A DNA stretch of 64,000 nucleotides from an uncultured Candidatus Saccharibacteria bacterium (GTDB lineage: Bacteria; Patescibacteriota; Minisyncoccia; Phycocordibacterales; UBA9973): positions 5,458 through 69,457 of the forward strand of contig CAYOLW010000005.1 of NCBI GenBank assembly GCA_964404925.1, read 5' to 3'. The translations under genes were made by a program, and so were the position numbers. Under the pieces are notes generated by a model that was not told where the DNA came from, searched no databases, and saw nothing but the letters and a program-made list of their open reading frames with translations. Positions 81-62,010 of the stretch are shown here, in pieces (the stretch's first letter is position 1; the number at the start of each line of letters is the position of its first letter).

Positions 81-947
81 ATGGAAATCAAAAAACTGCC
101 AAAAGAATATTGGCCAGAAGGACTATTTGAGATTCCCGAACCACCAGAACAATTGTGGACACTTGGAGATTTTCCGGACTTGGACGGGCTCACTCTGCTG
201 TGCGTTGTTGGTTCTCGCAAATTTACAAGCTACGGAAAAGACGTCTGCGAAAAATTAATTGAAGGATTAAAGGGTCATCCTGTGGTTATCGTCTCGGGAC
301 TCGCCATGGGCATCGACGCTATCGCACACCAAACAGCACTTAAAGTTGGATTAAAAACACTGGTCTTCCCTGGATCTGGACTTTCTCGTAAAGCACTTTA
401 TCCGAAAACAAATTTGAGGTTAGCAGAAGATATTGTGAGAAATGGCGGATGTCTAGTGTCAGAATTTGAACCAGATTTCTTGGCCACACTGTGGGGATTC
501 CCTAAAAGGAATCGTCTTATGGCCGGCATGTGCCAGGCAACGCTCGTGATAGAAGCTGAAGAAAAATCCGGCACATTAATAACCGCACGGCTCGCCACAG
601 AATACAACCGCGATGTGCTCGCCGTGCCTGGATCAATATATTCACCGAATTCTAAAGGCACCAACAGGCTAATCCGCCAAGGCGCTACACCGATAACCTC
701 GGTTGATGATTTGCTAGATGCTTTAGATTTAAAAAAGGATAACAATGCGAACATCCAGCAGAAACTTTTTGCTGAATTGTCACCGGAAGAATTGCGGGTC
801 ATAGACATACTCCGTGAACCCATGCCTCGGGATGAACTAATCCGTGCATTAGGTATAGGCACGTCAGAGGCTAATGCATTAATAACAGTAATGGAAATAA
901 AAAAGATAATAAAAGAGGAACTCGGTGAAATTAGGTTAAGTAATTAA
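81..947 (+). CDS. dprA: DNA processing protein DprA/Smf (Rossmann-like DNA-protecting domain plus C-terminal winged-helix-like tail)
   Basis: Motifs LLCVVGSRKFTSYG, VVIVSGLAMGIDAIAHQTAL and LAVPGSIYSPNSKGTNRLIRQGA match the DprA family; 288 aa. Confidence 0.85.
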   Translation: MEIKKLPKEYWPEGLFEIPEPPEQLWTLGDFPDLDGLTLLCVVGSRKFTSYGKDVCEKLIEGLKGHPVVIVSGLAMGIDAIAHQTALKVGLKTLVFPGSGLSRKALYPKTNLRLAEDIVRNGGCLVSEFEPDFLATLWGFPKRNRLMAGMCQATLVIEAEEKSGTLITARLATEYNRDVLAVPGSIYSPNSKGTNRLIRQGATPITSVDDLLDALDLKKDNNANIQQKLFAELSPEELRVIDILREPMPRDELIRALGIGTSEANALITVMEIKKIIKEELGEIRLSN

Positions 948-975: not shown

Positions 976-1500
976 CTAATCGTCCTCGTATTCTTCCTCA
1001 TCATCATCCCCATCATCTCCCCCTCTAGTTTTTAGGGATTCCATGTTTGCACTTGATTGTACTTTACTATTCACTGCGGCAGCGGCGGAGACTGTATTTA
1101 TACTCTCCCCAACTTTACCAATATAAAAACCTGAAAGCAGATTCCAAGCAAAATTGGAGTGGATAGCGGTAAAAATTTTGGTAGCTTCTTTGCCACACAT
1201 GTCGGTTATTTTCTTCACCCCTCCTGGATGCTGATCAATAAATCCTGCCACGCTGTATACAGAATCTTTCATAATTAAATAACAATCATCTCGTGTCTTG
1301 TGCTTAGCAATTTCAGCTAGGGTTAAGGTGACACTGCTTGTATTAGAGGATGGTACACCGGTCACATCCGGTAATGTGTTTAGAGTATTATCTGCTAAGT
1401 TGGTCGCACTTTGTGGCTGATATTTAGAGTACAAAGCAATTCCCGCAAGTGATGCTACGAAAATTACAAATACTCCCAGTGTTATCTTTTTTAATTTCAT
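976..1500 (-). CDS. membrane-anchored cytochrome b5-like heme-binding domain protein with acidic C-terminal tail
   Basis: N-terminal TM helix; cyt-b5 signature ...YLIMKDSVYSVAGFIDQHPGG...; C-terminal DDGDDDEEEYEDD; located immediately downstream of, and co-oriented with, the ferric reductase gene. Confidence 0.6.
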   Translation of the reverse strand: MKLKKITLGVFVIFVASLAGIALYSKYQPQSATNLADNTLNTLPDVTGVPSSNTSSVTLTLAEIAKHKTRDDCYLIMKDSVYSVAGFIDQHPGGVKKITDMCGKEATKIFTAIHSNFAWNLLSGFYIGKVGESINTVSAAAAVNSKVQSSANMESLKTRGGDDGDDDEEEYEDD

Positions 1501-1514
1501 ATATTCAAATTATT

Positions 1515-2849
1515 TTATAAACTAAATTCCTCTGAATATATAGACGTACCTGGTACACCTAAAGTTGCAAACTGTCTGCGTAGCGCTTGTATCATCGGCA
1601 CAGGTGAACATATGAAAATACTGCGTCTGTCCAGGCTACCTGATTTGTCGTTGATTATCGTTGCATTAATATAGCCAGCTGTATCAGAATAGTGCGGAAT
1701 TATATGAATTAGGTTGTTCCCGATTTTTTGTAATTCATTTAGGTATACTGCCTCAGATGGATTCTTCACACAATAATACAAATCCACCCGATAACCATCT
1801 TCTTCTTTGAGGGATTTAGCCATGGAGATAAAAGGCGTAACCCCGATGCCTCCGGCTATCCATATCTGCTTTTTGAATTCTGCTTCGCTGTATGTGAATT
1901 TACCAAAAGGACCTTCTACCAGTGCCTCAGAGCCTTCTGATAATTTATTTATATTTTGAGTCCAGTCACCCAAGTTTTTAATAGTGAAAGAAATTTTCTC
2001 ATCACCTAATCCTGAAGAAATAGAGAATGGATGACTTTCGCTACTGACATGTTTATCCTTGAAAGTTATAAAAGCAAATTGCCCAGGCAAGAAATCAATT
2101 TTTTCTTTAACTGGTTTTAATATTACTTCAGTAATACCATCCCCAAGAATTTTTACTTTCGAGACACGATACTTTAATCCTCTTTTAATAAAAAGATCTA
2201 AAATAGTGTGATAAAAATATACACATAGTGCTACTCCGGAAACAACCAAAACATAAATCCTAAGTGGCAAATATGTGGAAGTGTCGCTCGGTATAAGGTA
2301 GGCATGCATACCGATGAGGAAAAATGCTATTCCCATGAATTTGTGAGTCCATTTCCAAATATGATACTTGGGCCTGAAATACAAAGTTAAGAATATAAGT
2401 ACAATCAGTAGATAGAATCCCACCTGGCCGAAAGTAATAGCCTGCCCGAACTCATTAGGTGTAAAAAAAGATAAAATACTTCGGAAACTGAGATCTGTGT
2501 ATTGATATATTAGGGATAACGGATGGAAAAGCATAAACATGAATCCAATCTGCCCTACTTGGCCATGCTTGATATACACCCTATTAAGTCCATAGAAAAA
2601 TTCTTCCAGTACTTTAAACTTTGACGATAAGAGCAAAGATTCAGCAAAAAGCATCATACCAATAATGCCGAAAACACGTCCCAGCAGGGATGCTGTGTCT
2701 GCCCAAGTGGTAACATTAAAGCTCACCGACGGAGATAAAGCCCAAAACAATACCGCGATTAACGGAATTGCAATTAAGAAATAAACACCAGATCTATCTT
2801 TATCTGTTTGCATATACACCATTCTATCACAGCATGATTTTCCTGCCAA
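1515..2849 (-). CDS. ferric reductase / NADPH-oxidase-like flavocytochrome (FRD transmembrane domain plus FAD/NAD(P)-binding FNR-like domain)
   Basis: Multi-TM N-terminal half with conserved His residues; HPFSISS (HPFT-type FAD motif), EGPFGKF, IAGGIGVTPFISM (NAD(P)H-binding), CSPVPM; true start probably internal (MVYMQ or MQTDK). Confidence 0.7.
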   Translation of the reverse strand: MAGKSCCDRMVYMQTDKDRSGVYFLIAIPLIAVLFWALSPSVSFNVTTWADTASLLGRVFGIIGMMLFAESLLLSSKFKVLEEFFYGLNRVYIKHGQVGQIGFMFMLFHPLSLIYQYTDLSFRSILSFFTPNEFGQAITFGQVGFYLLIVLIFLTLYFRPKYHIWKWTHKFMGIAFFLIGMHAYLIPSDTSTYLPLRIYVLVVSGVALCVYFYHTILDLFIKRGLKYRVSKVKILGDGITEVILKPVKEKIDFLPGQFAFITFKDKHVSSESHPFSISSGLGDEKISFTIKNLGDWTQNINKLSEGSEALVEGPFGKFTYSEAEFKKQIWIAGGIGVTPFISMAKSLKEEDGYRVDLYYCVKNPSEAVYLNELQKIGNNLIHIIPHYSDTAGYINATIINDKSGSLDRRSIFICSPVPMIQALRRQFATLGVPGTSIYSEEFSL

Positions 2850-2853
2850 AAAA

Positions 2854-3255
2854 TTAAACAGATGGCTGTTCTTGTCTTTCTAGGTCTAAAAGTTGCTTTT
2901 CGAGTTTAAGAATTTCTTCTTGGACTTTTTTGATTTGATCTTGTCCTTCACCCATTTTAATATCAATTTCTAGATTCTTACGTTCAGCTTCAAGTGCTTG
3001 TTTTGTAAATTCTATTTTATCATGTAAATTTAATTTATTATAACTATCTATTTCAAAAGCTTTTGCAGGGTTTATTCCCGGATATTTCTTCATATCAATC
3101 CCCCATTTAGGTTGAAAGTCATTAAAGAATTGCTGGTCCGCCGTACTGTTTGTCTGCGCTTCTACACCTTCTACAGCAGTTGTTATTGCAGCAGCAATTG
3201 TCATGCCCCTTCTAGCTTTTCCCCTTGTAAAAATTTTCTCAAATGGATTTTTCAT
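2854..3255 (-). CDS. hypothetical coiled-coil protein, first gene of the ferric reductase operon
   Basis: ORF with a 4-nt gap to the downstream gene; heptad-rich C-terminus; no recognisable domain. Confidence 0.35.
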   Translation of the reverse strand: MKNPFEKIFTRGKARRGMTIAAAITTAVEGVEAQTNSTADQQFFNDFQPKWGIDMKKYPGINPAKAFEIDSYNKLNLHDKIEFTKQALEAERKNLEIDIKMGEGQDQIKKVQEEILKLEKQLLDLERQEQPSV

Positions 3256-3309: not shown

Positions 3310-3339
3310 TTGCCAAAAAAATCAAATTCGTGTAATACT
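3310..3339 (+). promoter_or_regulatory. sigma70-like promoter (TTGCCA-18-TAATAC) 6 nt upstream of the topA ATG; leaderless transcript likely
   Basis: Hexamers read directly from sequence; no SD. Confidence 0.4.
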
Positions 3340-3345
3340 GGGCTT

Positions 3346-5574
3346 ATGCGATTATTAATTGTGGAGTCGCCTTCCAAGGCCAAAACAATAGAGAAGTACC
3401 TAGATGGCGCCTCCTCCTCATCGGCGGACAAGTACACCGTGCGTGCTTCTGTTGGTCATATCCGGGATTTACCTAAGTCAAACAAGAAAGCCATAGATAT
3501 AGAAGGAGGCTTTATCCCCCACTATGAGATAAGTAAAGGCAAAGAAAAGGTAGTCCATGAATTACAACACCTAGCCGAGAAGGCCAGTGAAGTACTACTA
3601 GCCACTGACCCTGACCGTGAAGGCGAGGCTATCGCTTGGCACATAGAGGAATTACTGAAAGCTGACAAGAAAGTTAAAGCAAAAATAAAAAGAGTCACTT
3701 TTCATGAAATAACCAAAGAAGCTATTCTAGAAGCACTCAAAGAACCACGTGAAATAGACACAGATTTGCGTCGTGCCCAAGAAGCTCGCCGTGTGCTCGA
3801 CCGACTTGTGGGATACGATCTATCTGGAGTTATTTGGAAGAAGGTCCGCTACGGTCTATCTGCTGGGCGAGTACAATCCCCGGCCCTACGCATAATCATG
3901 GAACGTGAAAGAGAAATCCGAGCTTTTATCCCAGAAAAATATTGGAGGATTTGGGGTGAGTTTGAAACTGCTAAAAAAGCTGCTATCAGATTAGAGTGTA
4001 GCGAAGAACCACGTGATGAAAAATTGGTAGATAAAATAATGCAAGTAGGCAATGCCGGCACTTGGGTTATTGATGGTGTCAAAGAATCCGAACAAAAGCG
4101 TGCACCCCGTGCACCGTTTACTACTTCCACATTGCAGCAGACAGCGAGTTCAAGACTCGGCTACTCACCTTCTCGTACCATGCAGATAGCGCAGAAATTG
4201 TATGAAGCTGGACATATAACATACATGCGTACCGATAGTACTAATCTAGCTAAAGTTGCCCAAGACCAAATACTTGCCTTGATCGATAAAAAGTTCGGTA
4301 AAGACTATGTTGTACCGAGAGTATATAAAACAAAATCCAAAAATGCTCAAGAAGCCCATGAAGCCATCCGACCAACTCATTTTAATGTAGAACATGCGGG
4401 TACAGATGAACAACAAAAATTGTATCGTCTAATCTGGGAGCGTACAGTATCCAGCCAAATGGCTGATGCCAAAGTTCTGCGAACTAAACTAACTGCAGTT
4501 ATCGAAGGAGAAGAAGAAATTCCTCCGTTTAGCGCCAATGGTTCGAGGCTTCTTTTCCCAGGATGGCTAGCCGTAGATACCGCAGCCCGTGGTGAAGATG
4601 TAGAATTACCAGAATGCAAAGCTGGAGAAAAGTTGAAACTTTTGAAACTAGAAAACGAAGAGAAATTTACCGAACCGCCAGGCCGCTATAGCGAAGCTGG
4701 ATTAGTGAAAGAACTTGAATCTCGTGGTATAGGGCGACCTAGTACCTACGCATCTATCATGCGTACCATAGAAGAACGTGGTTATGTAAGAAAAGAAAAT
4801 AAAACACTTTTCCCCACCGATACAGGTGAAGTAGTCTCTGATTTCCTAGAGAATAATTTTGCTAACTATATTTCAGATACATTTACTGCCGAAATGGAAG
4901 ACGAGCTTGATGAGATTTCTCGAGGTGAACGTGATTATGAGAAAACCTTAAGAGAGTTCTACACTCCTTTTATCAAAGAAGTAAAAGAAAAAGATAAATT
5001 AGCCAAAGCTACGGACCTGGGTGCTGCGCCGGAAAATATAAAATGTCCTAAATGTGGTAAAAGCATGATAATAAAGCTTGCTCGAGCTGGTAAATTCTAT
5101 TCTTGTTCTGACTACCCTGATTGTACTGGTGCACTCATGCTAGACGGAACAGAACTCCAAGGTCCAAAAGAAATAGGAGAAATGTGTCCCCTATGTGGCG
5201 AGAAGAAAGGTAAATCCGGAGGTGGTAAACTCGTCATCCGAGAACGTCGCGACGGTACCGGCACATTTATATCTTGCTCACGTTATCCAAAATGTAAATT
5301 TATTAAAGAAGACGAGGAAGAGAAGAAAAGGAAAATGACAGATGTAGAATGCCCTACCTGCAAAAAGGGTTTTATGATGGAACGCCGAGGAAGATTCGGT
5401 ATATTCTATTCTTGCTCAAACTATCCAGACTGCAAAAATGCCATTAAAGCCAAACCAACTGGTCGCATATGTGACATGTGTAGTTCATTAATGATGGAAG
5501 GCACCAAGACAATCCCAGAGAGATGCAGTAATAATAAATGCCCTAACCACCGACCAGATAAACTCAAAAAATAA
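3346..5574 (+). CDS. topA: DNA topoisomerase I with C-terminal multiple zinc-ribbon domains
   Basis: MRLLIVESPSKAKTIEKYL Toprim N-terminus, GYITYMRTDS active-site Tyr region, four C4 zinc ribbons (CPKCGK, CPLCGE, CPTCKKG, CDMC); ORF track used an upstream TTG, and the ATG at 3346 fits the family N-terminus. Confidence 0.9.
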   Translation: MRLLIVESPSKAKTIEKYLDGASSSSADKYTVRASVGHIRDLPKSNKKAIDIEGGFIPHYEISKGKEKVVHELQHLAEKASEVLLATDPDREGEAIAWHIEELLKADKKVKAKIKRVTFHEITKEAILEALKEPREIDTDLRRAQEARRVLDRLVGYDLSGVIWKKVRYGLSAGRVQSPALRIIMEREREIRAFIPEKYWRIWGEFETAKKAAIRLECSEEPRDEKLVDKIMQVGNAGTWVIDGVKESEQKRAPRAPFTTSTLQQTASSRLGYSPSRTMQIAQKLYEAGHITYMRTDSTNLAKVAQDQILALIDKKFGKDYVVPRVYKTKSKNAQEAHEAIRPTHFNVEHAGTDEQQKLYRLIWERTVSSQMADAKVLRTKLTAVIEGEEEIPPFSANGSRLLFPGWLAVDTAARGEDVELPECKAGEKLKLLKLENEEKFTEPPGRYSEAGLVKELESRGIGRPSTYASIMRTIEERGYVRKENKTLFPTDTGEVVSDFLENNFANYISDTFTAEMEDELDEISRGERDYEKTLREFYTPFIKEVKEKDKLAKATDLGAAPENIKCPKCGKSMIIKLARAGKFYSCSDYPDCTGALMLDGTELQGPKEIGEMCPLCGEKKGKSGGGKLVIRERRDGTGTFISCSRYPKCKFIKEDEEEKKRKMTDVECPTCKKGFMMERRGRFGIFYSCSNYPDCKNAIKAKPTGRICDMCSSLMMEGTKTIPERCSNNKCPNHRPDKLKK

Positions 5575-9513: not shown

Positions 9514-11028
9514 ATGCAAAAAAATTCACAGAAACAAATAGCGGAATTCATCAAGAAATTACGAGAACATAAGGGTATGACCCAGGGTGATTTCGCTAAA
9601 GCTTTAAGTACATCTCAAAGTGCGGTTGCACGGATGGAGTCCGGTGGACAAAATTTCACCACTGAACTACTTGATAAAATTAGTAATGTATTAGAGAAAA
9701 GTGTAGTAGCAGTAGGGGGAAGCTCAATGGATTTTGAAGTAGAAGGCGGGCACAAACTCTCTGGCAGTATAAAGACAAATTTTTCTAAGAATGGTTCTGT
9801 TGGACTTCTGTGTGCTTCCCTATTAAATCAAGGTACAACCACCCTGCATGGTATTGCTCGAATTGAAGAGGTATATCGAGTGATCGAAATATTAGAAAGC
9901 ATCGGGGTAAAAATAAAATGGCAAGGACCAAATACTGTAGTTATAAACCCCCCATCAAAATTTGAATTAAATAAAATAAATGTTGAATCTGCAATTAAGA
10001 CACGTTCAATAATTATGATCATAGGACCGCTTATTCACCTATTACCTAAATTTGCTATTCCGCATGCATCTGGATGCAAACTGGGTAAAAGAACTATTGC
10101 CGCGCATACCTATGCGCTAAATGACCTTGGAGTGTCTATTGAGACAACTAACTCTGCTTACAACATAAGCACGAAAAAATTAAAACCCGCTGAAATAATT
10201 ATGTACGAAGCTGGTGATACTGCTTGTGAAAACATCCTCATGGCCGCTGCCAGAATACCCGGTAAAACTGTTATAAAATTTGCTAGTGCTAATTATATGG
10301 TGCAGGAGATATGTTTTTTCCTTGAAACCCTGGGGGTAAGTATTGAGGGTATAGGAACCAGCACTCTGGTTGTGCATGGAATAAGTGAAATAAACAAAAA
10401 CATTGAATACTCAAATAGCGAAGACCCAATTGAATCAATGATGTTCATCGCAGCAGCGCTGGTGACCGACTCAAATATAAAAATAGAACGATGCCCAATT
10501 GATTTCTTGTCGCTTGAATTAGACAAACTAAAGAGAATGGGGTTTAAATACAAAACAACTCCCGTCTATCAATCGTACAACAACAGAACAAATTTGGTTG
10601 ATATTGAAATTTTACCATCTAAATTAACTGCGCTTGAAGACAAAATACATGCCCTACCCTATCCTGGAATCAACATGGACAATCTACCATTTTTTGTACC
10701 GATCGCGGTGAAAGCCAAGGGTCAAACAATGATTCATGATTGGGTGTACGAAAACCGAGCTATTTATTTTACTGAACTCAACCGACTCGGTGCGAACATC
10801 ACACTAGCTGACCCTCATCGTGTATATATACAAGGAGGTACACCACTGAAATCCGCCCAATTAGTGTGTCCACCCGCACTGCGACCGGCAATGATAATAT
10901 TGATTGCTATGCTAGGCGCACCAGGTAAATCCATACTCAGAAATGTGTATATGATTAACCGTGGGTATGAAGATATTGCTACTCGATTAAGCTCAATCGG
11001 AGCAAAAATAAAGGTCATTCAAAATTAA
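9514..11028 (+). CDS. murA: UDP-N-acetylglucosamine 1-carboxyvinyltransferase (MurA) fused to an N-terminal XRE-type HTH domain
   Basis: Residues 1-70 HTH_XRE (MTQGDFAKALSTSQSAVARMESG); remainder shows the EPSP-synthase fold with the MurA active-site Cys context ASGCKLGKRTIAAH and AAARIPGKTVIKFASANYMVQEICFFLETLG. Confidence 0.75.
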   Translation: MQKNSQKQIAEFIKKLREHKGMTQGDFAKALSTSQSAVARMESGGQNFTTELLDKISNVLEKSVVAVGGSSMDFEVEGGHKLSGSIKTNFSKNGSVGLLCASLLNQGTTTLHGIARIEEVYRVIEILESIGVKIKWQGPNTVVINPPSKFELNKINVESAIKTRSIIMIIGPLIHLLPKFAIPHASGCKLGKRTIAAHTYALNDLGVSIETTNSAYNISTKKLKPAEIIMYEAGDTACENILMAAARIPGKTVIKFASANYMVQEICFFLETLGVSIEGIGTSTLVVHGISEINKNIEYSNSEDPIESMMFIAAALVTDSNIKIERCPIDFLSLELDKLKRMGFKYKTTPVYQSYNNRTNLVDIEILPSKLTALEDKIHALPYPGINMDNLPFFVPIAVKAKGQTMIHDWVYENRAIYFTELNRLGANITLADPHRVYIQGGTPLKSAQLVCPPALRPAMIILIAMLGAPGKSILRNVYMINRGYEDIATRLSSIGAKIKVIQN

Positions 11029-16288: not shown

Positions 16289-16945
16289 CTATTTCCTATT
16301 AATAACAATTTCTGAAACTTCCATGTTTTTAGGTAGGTCCAAAATCTGTTTTAACAAAAGAGCTAAATCTTCTGGCTTCATCCATTCATCTCCATTCTCT
16401 GTATTATCTACACCAGTCGCTTTTTCAAAAAGCTTAGTTTTGAATCCTCCTGGGCAAAAGCTAATTACCCTATTTGGCTTACCTTTAAATTCTTCTTGTA
16501 AGTTTTTACTAAATCCTCTAACTGCCCATTTAGATGCACCGTAAACTGCCTGATTTACATAACCTTTTAACCCCACCGTAGAGGCTACATTTACGATATC
16601 AGTTTTATCATTAAGAATTCTTTCATACAGATTTGATATTAGCAAAATCTGAGATTTTACGTTAGTAGACATTAAACGCTTTATTTCATCTTCTGTGATT
16701 TCTCCCATTTTTTGCACAGACAAAACACCCGCACAATTAATTATTGCTTCTACAGGTTCTTTTAATTCTAATATTTGATCTGTAGCTTTTTTAATTTCTT
16801 CTCCTTCACGAAGAGATAAGCAAATATTCATATCAGCATATTCACATTCATTTCTAGAAATATTTAGAACTTTCTTACCTGCTTCTTTATATAATTTTGC
16901 GACTTGTTTTCCAAGTCCATCACTGGCTCCAGTTATTATTATCAT
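16289..16945 (-). CDS. short-chain dehydrogenase/reductase (SDR) family oxidoreductase
   Basis: IIITGASDGLGK (TGxxxGxG); YGASKWAV (YxxxK). Confidence 0.8.
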   Translation of the reverse strand: MIIITGASDGLGKQVAKLYKEAGKKVLNISRNECEYADMNICLSLREGEEIKKATDQILELKEPVEAIINCAGVLSVQKMGEITEDEIKRLMSTNVKSQILLISNLYERILNDKTDIVNVASTVGLKGYVNQAVYGASKWAVRGFSKNLQEEFKGKPNRVISFCPGGFKTKLFEKATGVDNTENGDEWMKPEDLALLLKQILDLPKNMEVSEIVINRK

Positions 16946-27476: not shown

Positions 27477-28736
27477 CTAATAATTCTTCTTAAGTGCAGC
27501 TGGTAAATCCTTCAATTTCTTTACTACTGTTGTTAGTCCAGTTTTAGCCATTTCTTCTATGTATATTTTAGGGTCAAAAGATTTGTCTTCAGTATTTTTT
27601 ACCCCCACTCCACCCCATTTACCTTGTAGTACAAGCTTGGCAGTAGTAACTGTTGGTATTGCAGTTGTATAGCCTATAGCATTACCATTGGTTTCCTTGA
27701 AGGCTTTCTGGTGGTCGCAAACGTTGTAGATGTACATGTATTGCTTCTTGCCTTTCTTGGTTCCAGAAACAATGTTTCCGATGTTAGTCTTGCCTTTGTA
27801 TCCAGCATTGAAATCAGCACCTGTTGGGAGTATCTTTTTCAAGAATTTTACTGGCACGACTTTTTTACCATCATAATCAACCTCATCAATACGAGTCATA
27901 CCTACTTCGTAAAGCACACGGAGGTAGGTCAGGTACGCTGGTGAAAATGTCATCCAGAAACGAATCTGCTTGAGTCCAGGAATATGTTTTGGAATAGTTT
28001 CTAATTCTTCATGGTACATGAGGTATGGAGTGAATTTGCCCGCTTCTGGGAAATCAAATTCAAAATACGCTGCATCTTCGTCAATCAGCCTGCCACGTTT
28101 TACCCACTTACCATTTTTCCAATATTCAATAGGAAGTATTAATTCACGTAGATTAATCTCTGGATCAAAATTAGGTGCGAATTTAATTTTCTTGTCCTTG
28201 CTGCCGCCATTACAATCCAAGATATCAATAGTTTCTATTTTATCAAAAAGGTAGTCTCTGGCATAAGCTGAATAAATATTGGATACTCCAGGATCAAAAC
28301 CTGAACCTAAAATACCAAGTAGTCCCTTTTTCTTCCAATCATCGTTTTTTGCTAGTTGGAGTTTGTATGAAAATCCGTACTTTTCCGGATGTTCATAACA
28401 CGCAGTATCAATATAATTAACCCCATATTCATAGCAAGCATCCATTACAACCAAGTTGTCATACGGTGCACCCCAGTTAATAACTAACGTAGGTTCAACC
28501 CGAGACAGCAAACCCATAAAAAATTCTTTATTACCTACATTACCTTCGTGGATATGCAGTTTCACTTTGTTTTTAGACTTTTTCAATATTGAATCTCGAA
28601 CTTTTTCCATTTTAGAGAGTGTCCTCGACACTACATAGATCTCAGAGAAAATTTCTGGCGTCTGTGCCATTTTATGTAGACCAACTGAACCCACATTACC
28701 ACAACCGATTACCAATATTTTGTTAATTGTATTCAT
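27477..28736 (-). CDS. carboxynorspermidine/carboxyspermidine dehydrogenase (saccharopine dehydrogenase family)
   Basis: Rossmann ILVIGCGNVG; ILGSGFDPGVSNIYSAYA; KFAPNFDPEINLREL; AIGYTTAIPTVTTAKL; 419 aa. Confidence 0.8.
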   Translation of the reverse strand: MNTINKILVIGCGNVGSVGLHKMAQTPEIFSEIYVVSRTLSKMEKVRDSILKKSKNKVKLHIHEGNVGNKEFFMGLLSRVEPTLVINWGAPYDNLVVMDACYEYGVNYIDTACYEHPEKYGFSYKLQLAKNDDWKKKGLLGILGSGFDPGVSNIYSAYARDYLFDKIETIDILDCNGGSKDKKIKFAPNFDPEINLRELILPIEYWKNGKWVKRGRLIDEDAAYFEFDFPEAGKFTPYLMYHEELETIPKHIPGLKQIRFWMTFSPAYLTYLRVLYEVGMTRIDEVDYDGKKVVPVKFLKKILPTGADFNAGYKGKTNIGNIVSGTKKGKKQYMYIYNVCDHQKAFKETNGNAIGYTTAIPTVTTAKLVLQGKWGGVGVKNTEDKSFDPKIYIEEMAKTGLTTVVKKLKDLPAALKKNY

Positions 28737-33269: not shown

Positions 33270-34724
33270 TTAAATCATCGGTTCGGCTTCTTCAGTTTTT
33301 TCTTCAGTTGAGCTATTTGATTTACCAGAAATTGCTTCTTTTTCTTCTTTACTGCGGATGATGGTAGCCTCTTCTTCTTCAATCAGTCTCTGAGCCGCGT
33401 CCTTGGTAATAGCAAATTGATGTCGGGAAGCAGCCTTGATCTCGTCGCGATAGGACGGATGAGTTGGCGGCAATACACGCAGTGTCTCTGCTGAGAATGG
33501 GTCATAGCTTTCGCCATCAATAGTCATTTTGATATAGAATTCACCGACGGCCAGGTTGATCATGTCCTTTACTCCGAACAGCGGATCGAATTCAGATTTA
33601 AGCCTCGTCGCATCTTCACCACCCACACGGAAACTAATTATACTTCCGGTATTACCAAGCACCGCCTGATAAATCTTGGGGTTAATTTGACCCACGTACT
33701 GATGTGCCATTGTTAGGTTCAATCCGTACTTACGCGCCTCTGACAGAATATTCTCAAATGTCTGAGTAACCACGTTTTGAAACTCGTCTACATATATATA
33801 AAAATCTTGTCGCATATGCTCGGGAATATTAGCCCGCTCCATACCCGCCTGTTTAATCTTGGTCAAGAACATTGAGCCAAAGAAAGATGAATTTTCTTCA
33901 CCAATACGGCCTTTGGACAAATTGATTAACACAATTTTCTTTTCATTCATTAGTTGCGCAATGTCAATTTTGTTTTCCTTCTGTCCAAAAATATTACGAA
34001 GCAACGGATCAGAGAGGAATTGACCAAGCTTGTTCACCAACGGAATAATAGCGTCGGTGTCGAACTTCTCGGACCAATCGGCGAATTCGATAGCGAAGAA
34101 TCTCTTCACCATGTCGTCTTGGATATATTCCACCACCTTCTGACGGTAGTTACGGTCGGTCAACATAGAAATCATTCCACGCATGGTAGCGTATGGATAG
34201 TCAAGTAGTGCCAAACAGGTAAAACGAAACACGTGCTCGAGTCTCGGGGTCCAGTTAGAACCGAACTGCTTTTGGAACACCTCAATCAAACCTTGGGTCA
34301 ATTGAAATTTGAAACCAGGGTCAACATTAGAAAGCGGATTGAAAGATGCTGGGAATTCAGAATCCGAAGGGTCCAAGATGCAAACATCATTAATGCGTTC
34401 TTTGGGAATGTAGTCGAGCATCGAGTCTATCACATCACCGTGCGGGTCAATGAGACACAGTCCATGCCCATAAGTTATGTCTTGGCGAAGGAAAAGTTCT
34501 AGGAGTTTAGTCTTACCCACACCGGATTTACCAATGATATACAAGTGGCGACGACGGTCGACTCTTTTGATGCCAAAAATATACTTTTTCTCTTCAAGCG
34601 CAGCCACATAGTTGGTCCGTCCAATAAAAGACACATCCTCAGGGGCCACTTTACCATATGCTGGCAATTCTGGTGGTGGTGGACCGTATTTGATTATCTG
34701 AACTCGATTGGGTTTGGACGTCAT
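33270..34724 (-). CDS. soluble P-loop NTPase of the HerA/FtsK/TraD-TraG superfamily (paralog of 37144-39528)
   Basis: Walker A IIGKSGVGKTKL; LIDPHGDV; Walker B YIYVDEFQN; paralog alignment (FGIKR.DRR.H.YI.GKSG.GK, LVN.SKGRIGE.NS, MAHQY). Confidence 0.55.
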   Translation of the reverse strand: MTSKPNRVQIIKYGPPPPELPAYGKVAPEDVSFIGRTNYVAALEEKKYIFGIKRVDRRRHLYIIGKSGVGKTKLLELFLRQDITYGHGLCLIDPHGDVIDSMLDYIPKERINDVCILDPSDSEFPASFNPLSNVDPGFKFQLTQGLIEVFQKQFGSNWTPRLEHVFRFTCLALLDYPYATMRGMISMLTDRNYRQKVVEYIQDDMVKRFFAIEFADWSEKFDTDAIIPLVNKLGQFLSDPLLRNIFGQKENKIDIAQLMNEKKIVLINLSKGRIGEENSSFFGSMFLTKIKQAGMERANIPEHMRQDFYIYVDEFQNVVTQTFENILSEARKYGLNLTMAHQYVGQINPKIYQAVLGNTGSIISFRVGGEDATRLKSEFDPLFGVKDMINLAVGEFYIKMTIDGESYDPFSAETLRVLPPTHPSYRDEIKAASRHQFAITKDAAQRLIEEEEATIIRSKEEKEAISGKSNSSTEEKTEEAEPMI

Positions 34725-34761: not shown

Positions 34762-35457
34762 ATGAAAATTCATAGATTCATAGGCGATTTTGACTTTCGG
34801 AAAAACACCATAAATATTGAGGACCCAGAGATAATCAAACAGCTAAGGAACGTGCTACGCATGGAGCCTGGAGAGACTATTATCCTGTTTGATGGTAAAG
34901 GTATGGAGGCTGAAGTAGTAATAGAATCCATAAACAGTAAAAGCATTTTGGGGAATATAATAAGCAAAAAGGAGGTTTCAGGTGTAAGTAAATCTGTATC
35001 ACTTTATTTAGCGATTTTAAAGAAAGAGAATTTCGAACTAGCGGTACAGAAATCCGTAGAATGCGGAGTGTCCAGAATAATCCCAGTTATAACAGAACGC
35101 ACAGTAAAGACAGGACTCAATATAGAAAGGATTAATAAAATTATTCGCGAAGCAGCAGAACAATGCGGACAAAGTTTGTTACCAGATATTCTGCCCTCTA
35201 TGCCCTTCAACGACGCACTAATACAAGGACGAGAAAGCGAGGACAAAATCCTATTTCATTTAGTACGAGAAGAATACACACCAGCCAAAGATACAAATTC
35301 TATAAGTATTTTTATTGGACCAGAGGGTGGATTTACTGATAAAGAAATTGAACTAGCAAAAAAATCCGACTACACTATAGCTTCTCTCGGTGCACTCACC
35401 CTCCGTGGCGAAACTGCTGCCATCATCGCCACCTACCGAGCCGTTCAAGGTATCTAG
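34762..35457 (+). CDS. rsmE: 16S rRNA (uracil1498-N3)-methyltransferase RsmE
   Basis: HRFIGDFDF N-terminus; IILFDGKG...; SPOUT C-terminal IGPEGGFTDKEIELA; start taken at MKIHRF (the track began 54 nt upstream). Confidence 0.8.
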   Translation: MKIHRFIGDFDFRKNTINIEDPEIIKQLRNVLRMEPGETIILFDGKGMEAEVVIESINSKSILGNIISKKEVSGVSKSVSLYLAILKKENFELAVQKSVECGVSRIIPVITERTVKTGLNIERINKIIREAAEQCGQSLLPDILPSMPFNDALIQGRESEDKILFHLVREEYTPAKDTNSISIFIGPEGGFTDKEIELAKKSDYTIASLGALTLRGETAAIIATYRAVQGI

Positions 35458-37151
35458 TAAACTTCCTGCTGATAACATTTTTCACAATACACTATCTCGG
35501 GGCGATCTGGGGCGTAGCTGGTTTTCATGCCGGTATTACACTTGGAACAATTGCGGTTGTATAGCCTCCATTTATTGATTCTATTTATTCTTCTTTCATG
35601 ACGACAGTTAGGGCACTCTCTCGGCAACGGTAAAGTAAACCTACGCAGTAACTCCAATTCACCAAAAGCTATCCGGTAAGGCTTGGAACATTTTTTACAA
35701 GAAACGACTTCTTTGGTTATAGTATCTTCTACCTCAGAGATACTATCAGGTAAATCTTCGGGCTTTATCGTGGGTGTATGTTCTCCACTTTTAACTTCAG
35801 AATATATAAAACCACTTTTTGCTATTTCTTCTTTAGACATTGGGAAATACTGTATAGCATAAGACGCATTGTATGCAAAAGGAGATAAATCATAAGGAAA
35901 GAAATCACCATACCGAAAAACCCGGCCCTTGGTGTCTACATAAGGATCTTGATCCATACTAGCGATGATTTCATCTCTTAGTTTAAAATACTCTTCTTTA
36001 GAATATTGCTTGTTTAAAATACAATATTGCTTATTACGCAAACCAACACAACCAAAACAATCTTTGGAATTAACCACATACATTGAATACTCAACATTTC
36101 GAACATTATTCCATACACCAGAACAATATTTGATTTGATAGCCACCCTCTCCGGCAGTTATCGAATCGATACTTTGTTCAAGTCCATTACCCCATTCTCC
36201 AATATCATAATTATCTTTAAACGGGGGCAACGTTATAAATTGGCAATATCTAGAGTCTTCAGACATAACTGTCATATAGCAATCATGCACATTCTTAGAA
36301 GAATACACATATTCACCAGTCGAGTTAACATTCATGCGTCCATAGACTGCACGCTTTGGGAATTTGTTCCAAAAATTAAATATTTCTCCTTGAATAGCTT
36401 GATGGGCAGAATATCTATCAAGGTTCATTTCTTGTATTTTTTTCTTATATTCTTCTTTAGAATAAGGCTGATTAAATATGTGGTAACTTTTGTTTCTCAA
36501 ATTCACACAGCCAAAACAATTTGTACAAGCAACACAATCCTTGGAATACCACACGTCCACTGATTCTGGGCAATTTTCCGAGAAAAAAATATGTGAACCA
36601 TCTCCTCCGATACATTCATAAGCAAATTCTGTCTTATTGATCATCAAACAGTCCATTACCTCCTTGGAGTGGTTAATTACAGTAGAATAGTAAACATTCT
36701 CACAAAAATCAGCATTAAAAAGTAGGTAGCAATTTTTGCATGCACCAGCATGGTTGATGTATTCGCTATTAACTAAAGTCGTATAAGAAACTATTAGGTT
36801 CATCTTTGGTGTATTCAGCATCAAATCTTTAAGTTGGTTAAAGAAATTAATATTGGGATTATAGTCCAGTGCGTATTCCCCACCATCCCATTTATCGCCC
36901 CACCAACACGAACCACAATATATTGATTTATGTACTTCTGGATCAAAGATAGTAACTACGTTTTTACTACACAAACCACAAACGCTTTTATATAAAGTCC
37001 TTTCATTACGAAAAGACATCCTTTTTTGAATTCTGCATTCCGGGCAAAAAGTCGGTGCAGGAACTTTGATTTTCTCGTAGAAAGAAAAATCCTCGGGTTC
37101 AATATTGAAATCCTTTTTACAATTCTGACAATTTTTAGTTTCTTTATTCAT
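35454..37151 (-). CDS. large (565 aa) cysteine-rich protein with multiple zinc-ribbon/treble-clef-like CxxC pairs and internal repeats
   Basis: About 45 Cys; N-terminal CQNCKK...CPECR, C-terminal CKKCSK...CPNCRH...CSKCNT...CEKC; internal repeat C[FV]GCV[NG]LRNK[SQ]Y.I.N.(P/Q)YSKEEY occurs twice; 8-nt overlap with the upstream ATPase gene. Confidence 0.5.
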   Translation of the reverse strand: MNKETKNCQNCKKDFNIEPEDFSFYEKIKVPAPTFCPECRIQKRMSFRNERTLYKSVCGLCSKNVVTIFDPEVHKSIYCGSCWWGDKWDGGEYALDYNPNINFFNQLKDLMLNTPKMNLIVSYTTLVNSEYINHAGACKNCYLLFNADFCENVYYSTVINHSKEVMDCLMINKTEFAYECIGGDGSHIFFSENCPESVDVWYSKDCVACTNCFGCVNLRNKSYHIFNQPYSKEEYKKKIQEMNLDRYSAHQAIQGEIFNFWNKFPKRAVYGRMNVNSTGEYVYSSKNVHDCYMTVMSEDSRYCQFITLPPFKDNYDIGEWGNGLEQSIDSITAGEGGYQIKYCSGVWNNVRNVEYSMYVVNSKDCFGCVGLRNKQYCILNKQYSKEEYFKLRDEIIASMDQDPYVDTKGRVFRYGDFFPYDLSPFAYNASYAIQYFPMSKEEIAKSGFIYSEVKSGEHTPTIKPEDLPDSISEVEDTITKEVVSCKKCSKPYRIAFGELELLRRFTLPLPRECPNCRHERRINRINKWRLYNRNCSKCNTGMKTSYAPDRPEIVYCEKCYQQEVY

Positions 37152-39528
37152 TTCCTAGTATCTGGCGCAGGATTTCTTCTGGGACTTCCTTTACTTTTTG
37201 ATTATTTTGAGGCTGTGCTGGTATTTCTTGTGATGCTTTTTCTTCGGGTTGTGGTTCTTCTTTTATTCCTGGTTTAGGTTCTTCCGTTACTGGCTCTTCG
37301 TATTTAACTGGTTCTGGTTCAATATCTGGAACACTAACTGGCTCAGGAACAAAAATATTTTCAGGTTCTTTTATAGGCTCTGGGGTGTAAATTGGCTCTG
37401 GCTCTTTTACCGGTTCTTCTAATTTTATTGGTTCTGCGATATAGGACACCTCTTCGACAATTTCAGGTTTTGATTCCTCAATATTTTTTTCTGGGATGAC
37501 TTCTTCTATTTCTTTCGCTACTTGGGAAGCTGCGATGAGATTCTTTAGTGCATCCATGCGGTCACCGCTTGCACTGCGGTCTGCTGGATTATTCTGCTTT
37601 ATTTCTTTTTCAATTGGTTTGAGCGCTGATAATGATATTGGGGCTGGTATCTCAACTTTTTCTTTTGGTGTTTCTTCTTTTATGTCACCTTTCTTTAAGG
37701 CCTGATCTAATGCGGATTTCAGAGAACTATTCTGTCCGGCTTCATACTGAGGCTTCTTGACCTTGGGGTCGCGGGGGGCAAAAGTTTTCTTGATGCCGGC
37801 GATAAATCCTGATTTAGGCGCATTGTTTTGATTTCTATCTTTCCAATTATTGTCTCTGTTTTGGTTAGGCGCGCCGGCTGGTTTATTGTCTTTAAAGGTC
37901 ATATCCCTCTTCTGCATATCACCAGTTTTAGGTTTATCATCAACTGCGCCGTCACTGGCAAATTCAATACCGAGGTCAGACAAGGGCTTGTAATACACTG
38001 CTTTGTTTTTAGCGGTATCGGACTCATTCTTGAGAGGTTTCAATTCTCCGGCTTTTATCTTGGTTATACAATCCTTACAATACACCGGTCGGCCAGGCTG
38101 CGGCTCGAAAGGCACAAAGGTGTCATTGCCGCAGACAGAACATTTTGCTTTAAATTTATCCCCTCCGGAACCAGGTCCACCGGATTTGCTCGTACCCGTA
38201 CCGCCTTCACTGGAAGCCACAGTGTTACTCCACTCGATTATTTCTACTTCGACTTCTTCACGGTTGCGGCAATACAAGGCGCGTGAACTTTCGATAACGG
38301 CCTTTTCTATTTCTTTGTTTACACTTTTAATAAGCGGGGGGATGGTCTTGGCAGAAAACGGGCGCGAGGTGATACCATCAATCATGAGTTTCAAATATAC
38401 CTTGTAGTTCGGCAAGTTCACAATATCCGATGGAGTGAACTCTGGATCAAATTCTTTTTCTAAATATTTAGTATCTTCGGCACCGGTACGGAAAATAATC
38501 ATCGTTCCTACGTTACCGAAAATAGAGTCACGCATGGATGAGCTTTCTTTGGTCACAAGCTGGGCTGTATACTGGTGCGCCACAGTGAGCGAGAGTCGAT
38601 ACTTACGAGCTTCAGAAAGAATGTTCGCAAAAGAATCTGTAACGAAGTTCTGGAACTCGTCGACATACAGATAAAAGTCTTTACGCAGGTCCTCGGGTAT
38701 ACGCACGCGCTCCATGGCAGCAAGCTGGATTTTCGTAATTAACATTCCACCAATCAATCGAGAGTTGTCCTCACCGATGCGACCCTTGGATACGTTCACG
38801 AGCAGAATCTTGCCTTGGTTCATGAGGTCGAAAATGTTGATGGTGCTTTTCTGCTGACCGACGATGTTACGGATAACGAAAGTAGAAAGGAATTGACCCA
38901 CCTTGTTCTGAATCGGTGCGATAGCTTCGTTACGAAATTTGTCCTGCCAGGCTTCATATTCATGCACCCAGAATGCCTTAATAACCGGGTCCTTCAAATT
39001 ACCAATAATCATCTGACGATAATCCTTGTCCACGAGCATACGGGTCACACCGAGGAGTGTTGTACCCGGAGTGTCGAGCAGCGCCAAGATGGTGTTGTTC
39101 AAAATATACTCCATACGAGCAGACCAAGCATTGGCCCAAATCTTGGTAAAAATACCCATGAGTCCGGATGCCACCAGGTGCTTGTGCTCAGGGTTTTCTA
39201 TTTCGAGCACGTTGAATCCGATATGGAAGTCTGTATCTGCTGGGTTGAAATACACCACGTCTTTGATACGCTCTGGAGGAATAGAAGAAAGAATTGTCTC
39301 CACGAGCTCACCGTGCGGGTCCACCACGCAGACACCTTCACCGTTGACGATATTCTGATAGACCATGTTGGTCATGAGCCCTGATTTACCAGTACCGGAT
39401 TTACCCAGGATGTACATGTGCTGACGGCGGTCCTTCCTCTTGATACCAAAGAGTTGGAATTGGTCACGATAGGTCGTGTATCCGATATATGTTATGTCCC
39501 GATTCTCCGGGAGACCTGGAATTGCCAT
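37144..39528 (-). CDS. HerA/FtsK/TraD-superfamily P-loop ATPase with C-terminal C4 zinc ribbon and long Pro/Glu-rich low-complexity tail
   Basis: Walker A ILGKSGTGKSGL; VVDPHGEL; Walker B YLYVDEFQNF; zinc ribbon CSVCGND...CKDC; tail repeats EPVKEPEPIYTPEPIKEPENIFVPEP... Confidence 0.55.
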   Translation of the reverse strand: MAIPGLPENRDITYIGYTTYRDQFQLFGIKRKDRRQHMYILGKSGTGKSGLMTNMVYQNIVNGEGVCVVDPHGELVETILSSIPPERIKDVVYFNPADTDFHIGFNVLEIENPEHKHLVASGLMGIFTKIWANAWSARMEYILNNTILALLDTPGTTLLGVTRMLVDKDYRQMIIGNLKDPVIKAFWVHEYEAWQDKFRNEAIAPIQNKVGQFLSTFVIRNIVGQQKSTINIFDLMNQGKILLVNVSKGRIGEDNSRLIGGMLITKIQLAAMERVRIPEDLRKDFYLYVDEFQNFVTDSFANILSEARKYRLSLTVAHQYTAQLVTKESSSMRDSIFGNVGTMIIFRTGAEDTKYLEKEFDPEFTPSDIVNLPNYKVYLKLMIDGITSRPFSAKTIPPLIKSVNKEIEKAVIESSRALYCRNREEVEVEIIEWSNTVASSEGGTGTSKSGGPGSGGDKFKAKCSVCGNDTFVPFEPQPGRPVYCKDCITKIKAGELKPLKNESDTAKNKAVYYKPLSDLGIEFASDGAVDDKPKTGDMQKRDMTFKDNKPAGAPNQNRDNNWKDRNQNNAPKSGFIAGIKKTFAPRDPKVKKPQYEAGQNSSLKSALDQALKKGDIKEETPKEKVEIPAPISLSALKPIEKEIKQNNPADRSASGDRMDALKNLIAASQVAKEIEEVIPEKNIEESKPEIVEEVSYIAEPIKLEEPVKEPEPIYTPEPIKEPENIFVPEPVSVPDIEPEPVKYEEPVTEEPKPGIKEEPQPEEKASQEIPAQPQNNQKVKEVPEEILRQILGNE

Positions 39529-61677: not shown

Positions 61678-62010
61678 ATGAAAAGAATACTCACCCTGCT
61701 GGCATTTTTATGCTGGCAAACTGCGCACGCACAGGAAAGGTCTTGGCTATTGCAAGCCACTACATTTTCAACTCTTAATGATGGGTATATCATCGAACCC
61801 GAGATTACTTTTGTTTTAGAAGACGAGTTTTCTTTTCATGAATTCTCAATCAATTCCTCTGGAAGTTTTTGCACATTGAATGGAATCGTAGCGGGAAACA
61901 ACTACCCGTATATTTATTTATCATACAATCCTTTCAATTCAACTTCCTATTCAAGTATGGGGGTTTCGCGTGATGTAAATTTGGGGAAGAAAATTGGCGC
62001 AACAGCCTAA
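61678..62010 (+). CDS. small secreted hypothetical protein (signal peptide MKRILTLLAFLCWQTAHAQ)
   Basis: ORF plus signal peptide. Confidence 0.4.
   Translation: MKRILTLLAFLCWQTAHAQERSWLLQATTFSTLNDGYIIEPEITFVLEDEFSFHEFSINSSGSFCTLNGIVAGNNYPYIYLSYNPFNSTSYSSMGVSRDVNLGKKIGATA

Follow-up and report, generated by a model that had tools for sequence, protein, structure and literature searches.

A flavocytochrome and a cytochrome b5 encoded head to tail

We analysed a stretch of 64,000 nucleotides from an uncultured Candidatus Saccharibacteria bacterium (contig CAYOLW010000005.1, positions 5,458 to 69,457), hereafter called the window, with a focus on a gene for a NOX/ferric-reductase-like flavocytochrome and the cytochrome b5 gene that follows it. 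On its minus strand, the window has three consecutive open reading frames (ORFs) in head-to-tail arrangement: 2854-3255 (133 amino acids, aa), 1515-2849 (444 aa, from a TTG codon) and 976-1500 (174 aa). They are flanked by dprA (81-947, plus strand), which is convergent to them, and by topA (3310-5574, plus strand), which is divergent. An earlier description made from the letters of the DNA alone (the sequence-only reading) had proposed a flavocytochrome operon with a dedicated b5 partner, preceded by a coiled-coil ORF. All three ORFs are present at the coordinates it gave, and the b5 gene does lie directly downstream of the NOX gene, but the gap between the two is 14 nt rather than the 15 nt reported there. 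The order ParB, RelA/SpoT, TopA, a small ORF, NOX, b5, DprA and SerRS is shared exactly between the window and its close relatives.

The NOX ORF has three candidate starts, the TTG at 2849 that delimits the mechanically called ORF and two ATG codons at 2822 and 2813. ATG 2813 is most likely the true start, giving a protein of 432 aa (1515..2813, minus strand), because a 100% identical 432-aa protein (P0001) exists in a public collection, alignments of homologues begin at this position, and a promoter-like site lies inside the longer ORF. For the same reasons, including the -10 box within the extended frame, the TTG start was dropped. The promoter-like site itself (2821..2849, minus strand) reads TTGGCA-17-TG-TAGAAT, which matches 10 of the 12 positions of the sigma-70 consensus and has in addition the TG of an extended -10 element; its 3' end lies 7 nt before the NOX ATG. 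Related loci (L081-L085, L001 and L020) also have a -10 box, often TG-extended, which in most of them is found no more than about 12 nt before the NOX ATG, and farther away in L081. Moreover, in L084, L085 and L020 a terminator-like hairpin with a T-run is located upstream of this box. The NOX-b5 transcript is thus probably leaderless or has a very short leader, and the relatives suggest that leaderless or near-leaderless NOX transcripts may be a feature of the window's lineage. These consensus matches point to a putative two-gene unit of NOX and b5 with its own promoter.

The 133-aa ORF upstream of NOX (2854..3255, minus strand) has a signal-peptide-like N-terminus with a pair of arginines and a weakly hydrophobic segment, and the remainder is helical and charged. 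It has no match in Pfam or NCBIfam, and no relative of it was found beside NOX among 80 genome loci. Its counterparts in L081, L084 and L085 are positional only (121-141 aa, 21-29% identity), and it is missing from the close relatives L082 and L083. In the window it is parted from NOX by the promoter-like site, in relatives by terminator-like hairpins. We therefore rejected it as a third subunit on the lack of a family match, the weak positional counterparts, its absence from L082 and L083 and the promoter- and terminator-like separation. The coiled-coil ORF of the sequence-only reading exists, but its membership of the unit did not hold: it probably encodes a small secreted protein from a transcription unit of its own, outside the conserved unit of NOX and b5.

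The NOX ORF matches the Pfam families Ferric_reduct (33 bits, cut-off 28), FAD_binding_8 (52 bits) and NAD_binding_1 (39 bits), all above the curated cut-offs, which agrees with the earlier proposal of a ferric-reductase domain fused to an FNR-like module. The motifs on which that proposal was built are all found: the FNR-like domain carries HPFSISS with the HPFS of the FAD site, GPFG, the GGIGVTPF of the NAD(P)H site and CSPV, and these are invariant or nearly so in homologues. The best relative in the PDB is the NOX of Streptococcus pneumoniae, SpNOX (8qq7/8qt6, E ~5e-33, residues 44-438), to which the window protein is about 24% identical; matches to the eukaryotic DUOX, NOX2 and NOX5 and to plain FNR-family reductases are far weaker. 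An AlphaFold2 (AF2) model built from 65 homologues has a mean pLDDT of 91 and a pTM of 0.83. It contains six long membrane helices (residues 2-25, 37-63, 76-105, 124-146, 150-173 and 182-207) followed by a two-lobed beta/alpha domain. This divides the chain into a six-helix transmembrane (TM) ferric-reductase domain (residues 1-207; 2193..2813) and a cytoplasmic FNR-like dehydrogenase domain (residues 208-432; 1518..2192), both on the minus strand. In Foldseek, the top match of the model is the cryo-EM structure of SpNOX (8qt6), with a TM-score of 0.83/0.89 and a root-mean-square deviation of 2.5 A over the whole chain.

The sequence-only reading had named the bis-His haem ligands in TM3 and TM5 as a test of the assignment. 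All four histidines are present and, counted over the 65 sequences, invariant: H83 (2565-2567) and H97 (2523-2525) on TM3 are spaced H-x13-H, and H157 (2343-2345) and H170 (2304-2306) on TM5 are spaced H-x12-H. A HMMER alignment pairs H83, H97, H157 and H170 with H69, H83, H129 and H142 of SpNOX, so that H83/H157 correspond to the inner haem pair (SpNOX H69/H129) and H97/H170 to the outer one (SpNOX H83/H142). F430 (..EEFSL), after which only two residues remain, is conserved almost without exception and stands where SpNOX has its gating F397. In the model, the extracellular loops are short (~11, 18 and 8 residues) and form no cap over the outer haem, which is therefore expected to be solvent-exposed. 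Four residues beyond the outer ligand, at H97+4, stands L101, a nearly invariant leucine and not a histidine, and R46 of the window protein on TM2 is a glutamine in the family consensus. The canonical O2-reduction centre of eukaryotic NOX1-5/DUOX and cyanobacterial NOX5, which consists of a TM3 histidine at the outer ligand +4, a TM2 arginine and an extracellular cap, is thus absent from the window NOX, and with its defining histidine replaced by leucine we discarded a canonical O2-reducing NOX as an identity for the protein. By its domains, histidine ligands and predicted fold the window flavocytochrome is a member of the SpNOX-type bacterial NOX family, and as such is predicted to bind FAD and two b-type haems.

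The downstream ORF (976..1500, minus strand) encodes a predicted membrane-anchored, exported cytochrome b5 of 174 aa. It matches the Pfam family Cyt-b5 (PF00173, E 3e-18), contains the HPGG motif and has PDB b5s among its matches. The AF2 model shows a TM helix (residues 3-26; 1423-1494), a disordered S/T/N-rich linker of ~26 residues (27-52), a b5 fold (56-135; 1096-1335) with a pLDDT of ~77-91 per 10-residue block, a short helix and a disordered acidic tail, GGDDGDDDEEEYEDD (979-1023), which bears out the TM anchor, HPGG motif and poly-acidic tail that had been read from the sequence. The putative haem ligands are H91 of HPGG (1228-1230) and H114 (1159-1161). Both are conserved without exception in 29 homologues and coincide in alignments with the haem ligands of b5 structures in the PDB; the spacing of the second histidine, ~23 residues past that of HPGG, is that of the classical bis-His b5 (PF00173, 'clade 2'). 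Haem binding by the protein is predicted on these grounds.

Two features bear on the side of the membrane on which the b5 domain is found. First, the N-terminus, MKLKK, places three positive charges before the single TM helix, and K2 and K4 are nearly invariant; by the positive-inside rule this predicts an N-in/C-out topology with the b5 domain outside the cell. Second, C102 (1195-1197) is invariant and C73 (1282-1284) nearly invariant in the 29 homologues, and both align with the only two cysteines of cytochrome b558 of Ectothiorhodospira vacuolata (PDB 1CXY; E 2e-8 against the window b5). Cytochrome b558 is reportedly a soluble bacterial b5 that is set apart from eukaryotic b5 by a disulfide bridge. 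A C73-C102 disulfide probably stabilises the window b5 as well, and such a bond is an expected trait of an extracytoplasmic protein. The disordered S/T/N-rich linker and the sortase motif at the end of one partner variant also speak for an outside location.

The b5 partners from genomes of the candidate phyla radiation (CPR; window 979-1023 and P0121-P0146) share a conserved acidic C-terminal motif, ..E-Y-E-[DK]-D, after a low-complexity N/S/T-rich spacer, and this conservation suggests a specific ligand. CPR and DPANN partners alike retain the ..EYEDD tail, which the periplasmic b5s of Gammaproteobacteria do not have. A basic docking patch for it on the NOX loops was looked for by eye and rejected, since the three extracellular loops are nearly devoid of basic residues; thus, the tail probably does not dock there. 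One speculation is that its ligand may be the acceptor, a cation or the positively charged surface of an Fe(III) mineral.

Distribution of the pair and its link to Mtr conduits

A scan for relatives, with one genome per species, yielded 565 NOX-like proteins, of which the best 80 were examined. From these 80 loci, the window and some loci retrieved afterwards, 29 NOX-b5 pairs were compiled; in each, a single-TM b5 ORF begins at, or a few bases from, the NOX stop codon on the same strand. The association is thus no chance event. Wherever the pair occurs, in Patescibacteria, marine Gammaproteobacteria or DPANN archaea, NOX precedes b5. Among Patescibacteria the pair occurs in Paceibacteria, Saccharibacteria, Buchananbacteria, Staskawiczbacteria, Collierbacteria and Elulimicrobiota. 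The DPANN loci belong to Pacearchaeota (4319-4873 in L010 and 7146-7655 in L011) and Woesearchaeota (1026-1466 in L014), to which a fourth locus is added (7212-7469 in L029); the archaeal assignment of all four is that of the record names and of their low GC content, and some of the DPANN partners have poly-acidic tails. The gammaproteobacterial loci (L066, L075 and L077) have a high GC content of 56-64%. The presence of the pair in both DPANN archaea and ultrasmall bacteria implies transfer between them. Over the 29 pairs, the pairwise divergence of NOX correlates with that of b5 (Mantel r 0.705; none of 2000 permutations reached this value), which fits inheritance as a unit, with a contribution of shared organismal phylogeny to the correlation. 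The idea that the b5 is a dedicated partner is thus upheld by a gene order conserved across phyla and domains and by correlated divergence.

Partners of other types were also observed. Tandem proteins with two b5 domains are encoded in L005 (7284-8330), L018 (7251-8384) and L045 (7260-8111). In L003 (7226-7888) and L081 (7306-7968) a small C-terminal beta-rich domain, PepSY-like by eye and with no Pfam match, precedes the acidic tail, and in L028 (7282-7998) a degenerate b5-like partner ends in an LPVTG sortase signal. Four Rhizobiales loci (L065, 7211-10489; L069, 7234-10716; L073, 7249-10548; L079, 7088-10576) have, instead of a b5, an exported protein of ~1100 aa after the NOX-like gene. 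It carries four CXXCH motifs and matches Cytochrom_C, Cytochrome_CBB3 and DUF4384 in Pfam, so that it is seemingly a different haem-protein partner. Finally, in a metagenome-assembled genome (MAG) of the Saprospiraceae (L033, 7167-7694) a prokaryotic cytochrome b561 (Ni_hydr_CYTB) directly follows the NOX-like gene. What these loci share is the coupling of a NOX-like protein to a haem protein that is extracytoplasmic or resides in the membrane; in diderms this coupling extends to the machinery for moving electrons across the outer membrane.

The latter is best seen in Gammaproteobacteria. In a Cellvibrionaceae MAG, the NOX-like gene is followed by one for a b5 that shares ~55% identity with b558 (E 3e-25) and defines a family of ~120-aa proteins of marine Gammaproteobacteria with 280 matches, whose N-termini resemble signal peptides. 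In all three genomes inspected, those of Kineobactrum salinum, Haliea atlantica and Wenzhouxiangella sp., the b5 gene overlaps by 4 bp the end of a NOX-like gene for a protein of 432-441 aa with Ferric_reduct, FAD_binding_8 and NAD_binding_1 domains. In Haliea, genes for an MtrA-like decahaem cytochrome and an MtrB/PioB porin, which jointly make up a conduit for extracellular electron transfer, come next after b5 on the same strand. In Wenzhouxiangella, these two genes and those for an EB_dh-family protein and a NapC/NirT-type cytochrome are convergent to the pair, and in Kineobactrum the pair adjoins a gene for a TonB-dependent receptor. The MAG loci L066 and L076 show the order mtrA-mtrB-nox with abutting genes; b5 comes next in L066, and the sequence of L076 ends at NOX. 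Strings of the form nox-b5-mtrA-mtrB or mtrA-mtrB-nox-b5 are thus found in Haliea, Wenzhouxiangella and MAGs of Pseudomonadales/Cellvibrionales (L087, 3700-8311; L066, 1884-6738; L076, 2856-7305; L088, 3679-10360).

A metagenome scan with a profile of the gammaproteobacterial b5 recovered 67 loci (metagenome loci L089-L151), including a few near-duplicates. A NOX-like ORF ends right before b5 in 57 of the 61 loci that have at least 200 nt of upstream sequence, and MtrB and/or a decahaem cytochrome is encoded in 14 of the 23 that have at least 3 kb on both sides. In the window itself, no gene for a c-type cytochrome or a porin is found in 64 kb, and Mtr/Pio-type genes accompany the pair in the gammaproteobacterial relatives only. 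For the porin and c-type cytochromes this is expected, because the cell has no outer membrane. A link between nox-b5 and mtrAB was not found in the literature we searched, surveys of Mtr systems included.

A proposed electron-export module and its rivals

We interpret the locus as a two-gene module for electron export, from NAD(P)H to FAD, across two haems to the exported b5 and on to an external acceptor, and estimate the probability of this reading at about 0.6. A hydride would pass from NAD(P)H to FAD on the cytoplasmic FNR-like domain of NOX, a bacterial homologue of the constitutive type. Single electrons would then cross the membrane through the inner haem (H83/H157) and the outer haem (H97/H170), and the tethered b5 would dock on the uncapped outer face and take them up from the latter. 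Reduced b5 might swing on its linker and hand its electrons to the external acceptor; in a wall-bounded, Paceibacteria-like cell of the Patescibacteria, without an outer membrane, it would be the terminal, surface-exposed carrier. Thermodynamics favours outward flow, since NAD(P)H has a potential of about -320 mV and a typical b5 one close to 0 mV; the inside-negative membrane potential is a further aid. A fermentative cell that has no respiratory chain could gain from this by regenerating NAD(P)+; it might also profit from reducing extracellular Fe(III) or another oxidant, or from the reduced extracellular species itself. Homology and gene context are our grounds for inferring the direction of flow, the transfer from NOX to b5 and the acceptor. 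The relay to an extracellular acceptor suggested by the sequence-only reading is accordingly supported in its setting, by the predicted N-in/C-out orientation of b5, the Cys pair and the MtrAB linkage in Gammaproteobacteria, with the transfer itself deduced.

Patescibacteria and DPANN are held to lack electron-transport chains. Outside the NOX-b5 pair, neither quinone or respiratory genes nor any further haem or cytochrome gene was found in the 64 kb. The minimal redox repertoire that had been suggested earlier is consistent with this, on the scale of the window rather than of the genome. NAD(P)-linked enzymes among the scanned ORFs are a saccharopine-dehydrogenase-family protein (27477-28736), a malic enzyme (62034-63167) and an SDR (16289-16945), all on the minus strand; judged by eye from its neighbours, the first is probably a carboxynorspermidine dehydrogenase.

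Several points weigh against export by this route. The case for electron transfer from NOX to b5 consists of gene order and topology, and the linkage to Mtr genes is seen in distant relatives (~30% identity), not in the window's lineage. The pair's neighbours in that lineage are the housekeeping genes for DprA, TopA and RelA/SpoT, with no conserved gene for an acceptor or for metal transport among them. Outward electron flow through a NOX dissipates the membrane potential, and because of this the benefit would lie in redox balance or in a chemical product and not in energy conservation. Patescibacteria are generally held to lack haem synthesis, in which case the three b-haems would have to be scavenged and the exported b5 loaded outside the cell. 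A knockout of SpNOX had no phenotype in pure culture. Finally, a b5 partner is not universal among NOX-like proteins: the two are co-localised in 185 of 1427 CPR genomes that encode PF01794, an association reported in a 2021 preprint with its function unknown (bioRxiv 10.1101/2021.11.17.468889).

Five other explanations were considered and ranked in the following order: an assimilatory ferric reductase, an oxidase that produces reactive oxygen species (ROS), an MsrQ-like feeder, a cytoplasmic couple resembling cytochrome b5 reductase and b5, and a haem scavenger. According to the first, the relay serves the uptake of Fe(II) by reducing Fe(III) outside the cell, in chelates or minerals, and Fe3+ is gathered by the acidic tail close to the haem of b5. 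The family name and the fold shared with the eukaryotic FRE ferric reductases speak for this, as does the ..EYEDD tail, present in CPR and DPANN partners but not in the periplasmic gammaproteobacterial ones; the TonB-dependent receptor gene of Kineobactrum also fits. However, the conserved neighbours of the pair in the window's lineage include neither an Fe(II) transporter nor an iron regulator. Moreover, SpNOX, which reduces O2 at 48 per min and, under anoxia, cytochrome c directly at 124.7 per min, reduces Fe3+ at only 3.6 per min (kcat/KM 0.0006 per s per uM), a very slow rate that was judged non-physiological. An assimilatory role thus seems unlikely to us; it overlaps with electron export and differs from it only in the purpose of the exported electrons.

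According to the second explanation, the pair is an NADPH oxidase in which the outer haem or reduced b5 makes extracellular superoxide or H2O2, whether to attack a host or neighbour, to signal or to scavenge O2; b5 would then have an accessory or regulatory part. Among solved proteins SpNOX is the nearest relative, and it does consume O2 and has been described as a bona fide NOX. Yet the window protein has L101 in place of the histidine of the O2-reduction centre, and SpNOX likewise lacks this centre, its authors doubting that O2 is the physiological acceptor. A co-inherited dedicated haem protein and the linkage to Mtr genes would be unexpected for an O2 reductase, and we consider ROS production improbable, a little more so than iron assimilation.

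In the third explanation, the pair would act like MsrQ and feed an enzyme of repair or biosynthesis outside the cytoplasm (a methionine-sulfoxide reductase or a molybdo- or haem enzyme), with b5 as the adaptor as in sulfite oxidase. It draws on the fact that MsrQ is the only prokaryotic protein with a ferric-reductase domain whose function is proven, the reduction of a periplasmic protein partner. The varied anchored, exported proteins encoded after NOX-like genes in other lineages would agree with it. However, no gene for an MsrP-like or other such enzyme lies beside the pair in the window or its relatives, and where a further conserved partner is present it is an Mtr-type conduit. The chances of such a role are therefore slim.

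The fourth places b5 in the cytoplasm, reduced directly by the FNR-like domain, as in the couple of NADH-cytochrome b5 reductase and b5, and serving a lipid desaturase or the like. The dehydrogenase domain is indeed distantly similar to cytochrome b5 reductases (2eix, 7rom), and one source labels b5 homologues 'cytochrome b involved in lipid metabolism'. Against this stand the charges of MKLKK, which predict an N-in/C-out orientation, the Cys pair of the b558 type, said to form a disulfide there, the signal-peptide-like N-termini in Gammaproteobacteria, the reported isolation of b558 as a soluble protein and the sortase motif on one partner variant. A cytoplasmic b5 would also leave unexplained why a two-haem TM domain with invariant ligands is retained. 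The predicted topology and the Cys pair led us to reject this couple, which is hardly credible. Just as far-fetched is a haem-scavenging receptor or hemophore b5 whose haem iron NOX would reduce for uptake or release: Patescibacteria are generally held to lack haem synthesis while the unit needs haem, and b5 is predicted to be surface-exposed, but both axial histidines and HPGG are invariant, as in tight-binding electron-transfer b5s, no haem transporter genes are nearby, and the pair also occurs beside multihaem cytochromes in haem-prototrophic Gammaproteobacteria.

Electron export through NOX and b5 can be extended to a joint reading of all relatives, to which we would give somewhat less than even odds. 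In it, the b558-type b5 is the physiological acceptor of the SpNOX-type NOX, and the pair is a quinone-independent conduit for electrons from NAD(P)H that uses b-haems throughout. In Patescibacteria and DPANN, which are devoid of respiration, it would constitute the whole chain of extracellular electron transfer (EET), a redox vent onto minerals, O2 or a host surface that was exchanged between domains of life; in Gammaproteobacteria it would be an inner-membrane and periplasmic feeder of MtrAB/PioAB. If true, this would provide a function for the orphan b558 of E. vacuolata. A vent for electrons driven by NAD(P)H would change models of the redox balance of Patescibacteria and DPANN, and could bear on models of their interaction with hosts.

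Elsewhere in the window, a group of three genes on the minus strand (33270-34724, 35454-37151 and 37144-39528) was recognised by domain matches. It comprises two VirD4/TraG-type coupling-protein genes (TrwB_AAD_bind, T4SS-DNA_transf, DUF87), one of them fused to a treble-clef zinc finger, which flank a gene for a 565-aa protein with the same zinc finger, and is probably part of a patescibacterial type IV secretion or conjugation-like machinery. A similar ATPase is encoded downstream of the NOX-like gene of L043. The 504-aa product of 9514-11028 (plus strand) is an unusual fusion of an N-terminal XRE-type helix-turn-helix and a full EPSP_synthase/MurA-family domain. Near the end of the window, two small adjoining ORFs on the plus strand (60986-61552 and 61678-62010) have typical signal peptides and belong to no obvious family.

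Comparison with known systems

The window NOX shares its catalytic core and the H-x13-H and H-x12-H spacing with the eukaryotic NOX2, NOX5 and DUOX and with fungal FRE. It differs from them in having neither an extracellular cap nor EF-hand or peroxidase domains nor a p22phox-type partner, and in the leucine that replaces the TM3 histidine of the eukaryotic O2-reduction centre at the outer ligand +4 (H115/H119 in NOX2 numbering).

The likeness to SpNOX (8QQ7, 8QT6) is closer. Both are single chains in which a six-TM ferric-reductase domain with two bis-His b-haems is joined to an FNR-like FAD/NAD(P)H domain, both are without regulatory domains and have short extracellular loops, and both have an aromatic residue two positions from the C terminus. 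The hosts are different, a Firmicute in the case of SpNOX and here a Patescibacteria-type organism. Most importantly, SpNOX has no known protein partner, whereas the window NOX has a b5 encoded 14 nt downstream. Two structural studies of 2024 leave the natural acceptor and the role of SpNOX as an open question. The outer haem is strikingly exposed, there is no canonical O2 site, and mutating putative O2 sites was without effect, while cytochrome c is reduced directly and at a higher rate than O2 or Fe3+, all of which fits the export reading; its authors concluded that O2 is perhaps not the physiological acceptor and postulated a potential protein acceptor, and an eLife study takes a similar view. 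The b5 described here is a specific, small and easily expressed candidate for the acceptor of SpNOX-type enzymes, which makes the question directly testable. No link of b5 to the postulated acceptor was found in the literature searched, and searches combining Patescibacteria with ferric reductase, or SpNOX with the candidate phyla radiation, returned nothing.

MsrQ-MsrP of Escherichia coli, with the flavin reductase Fre, offers a precedent: MsrQ is a di-haem membrane protein with a ferric-reductase domain and an exposed outer haem that feeds a separate extracytoplasmic protein, and MsrQ and Fre together resemble a split NOX. Unlike the window NOX, in which the dehydrogenase domain is fused, MsrQ has no such domain and draws on quinol or Fre. 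Its partner MsrP is a molybdoenzyme that repairs methionine sulfoxide and not a b5; in the window the downstream gene encodes a b5, and no MsrP-like gene is present.

The b5 partner, in turn, is comparable to the first bacterial cytochrome b5, b558 of E. vacuolata (1CXY), with which it has the classical b5 fold, two histidine ligands and a Cys pair at matching positions in common. Cytochrome b558 is soluble, has 90 residues, reads HPGP instead of HPGG and carries a four-residue insertion before the second histidine, whereas the window b5 is without the insertion and has, beyond the b5 fold, a TM anchor, a long linker and the acidic tail. We know of no identified physiological partner of b558. 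The predicted outside topology and the disulfide-type Cys pair of the NOX-linked b5 were not found in the literature searched.

The gene association as such has already been published for CPR genomes, and the window locus is a further example of this known but uncharacterised association. The published pFre-cytb5 clusters (bioRxiv 10.1101/2021.11.17.468889) are, like the window, defined by PF01794 and PF00173 genes co-located in a CPR genome (within 10 kb), and all their products have TM helices; Paceibacteria/Patescibacteria are the nearest named relatives of the window locus. Many-gene clusters with, in addition, a Tyr-ligated MAPR-like cytb5MY, more b5-like genes and a two-component system were proposed as the ancestral state. 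In contrast, the window encodes a single b5-family protein in 64 kb, which is of the bis-His type, and no regulator beside the pair, and thus represents a minimal two-gene version. The preprint did not see the pairing outside CPR and was without topology, comparison with SpNOX or function, whereas we find the pair in DPANN archaea and Gammaproteobacteria as well, an occurrence that was not found in the literature searched.

Finally, the proposed role, the delivery of electrons from the cytoplasmic membrane to the exterior, is that of the feeders of Mtr conduits (CymA of Shewanella, with FccA/CctA) and of the flavin-based EET of Listeria (Ndh2, EetA/B, PplA). This comparison is functional only, there being no homology. 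Those systems start at the quinone pool and use c-type haems or flavins, whereas NOX-b5 would start at NAD(P)H, employ b-haems only and need no quinone. Relative to mtrAB, the gammaproteobacterial NOX-b5 pair occupies the position that is held by cymA, netBCD or pdsA in other Mtr clusters, and the nox-b5-mtrA-mtrB strings suggest an entry into Mtr conduits that bypasses the quinone pool.

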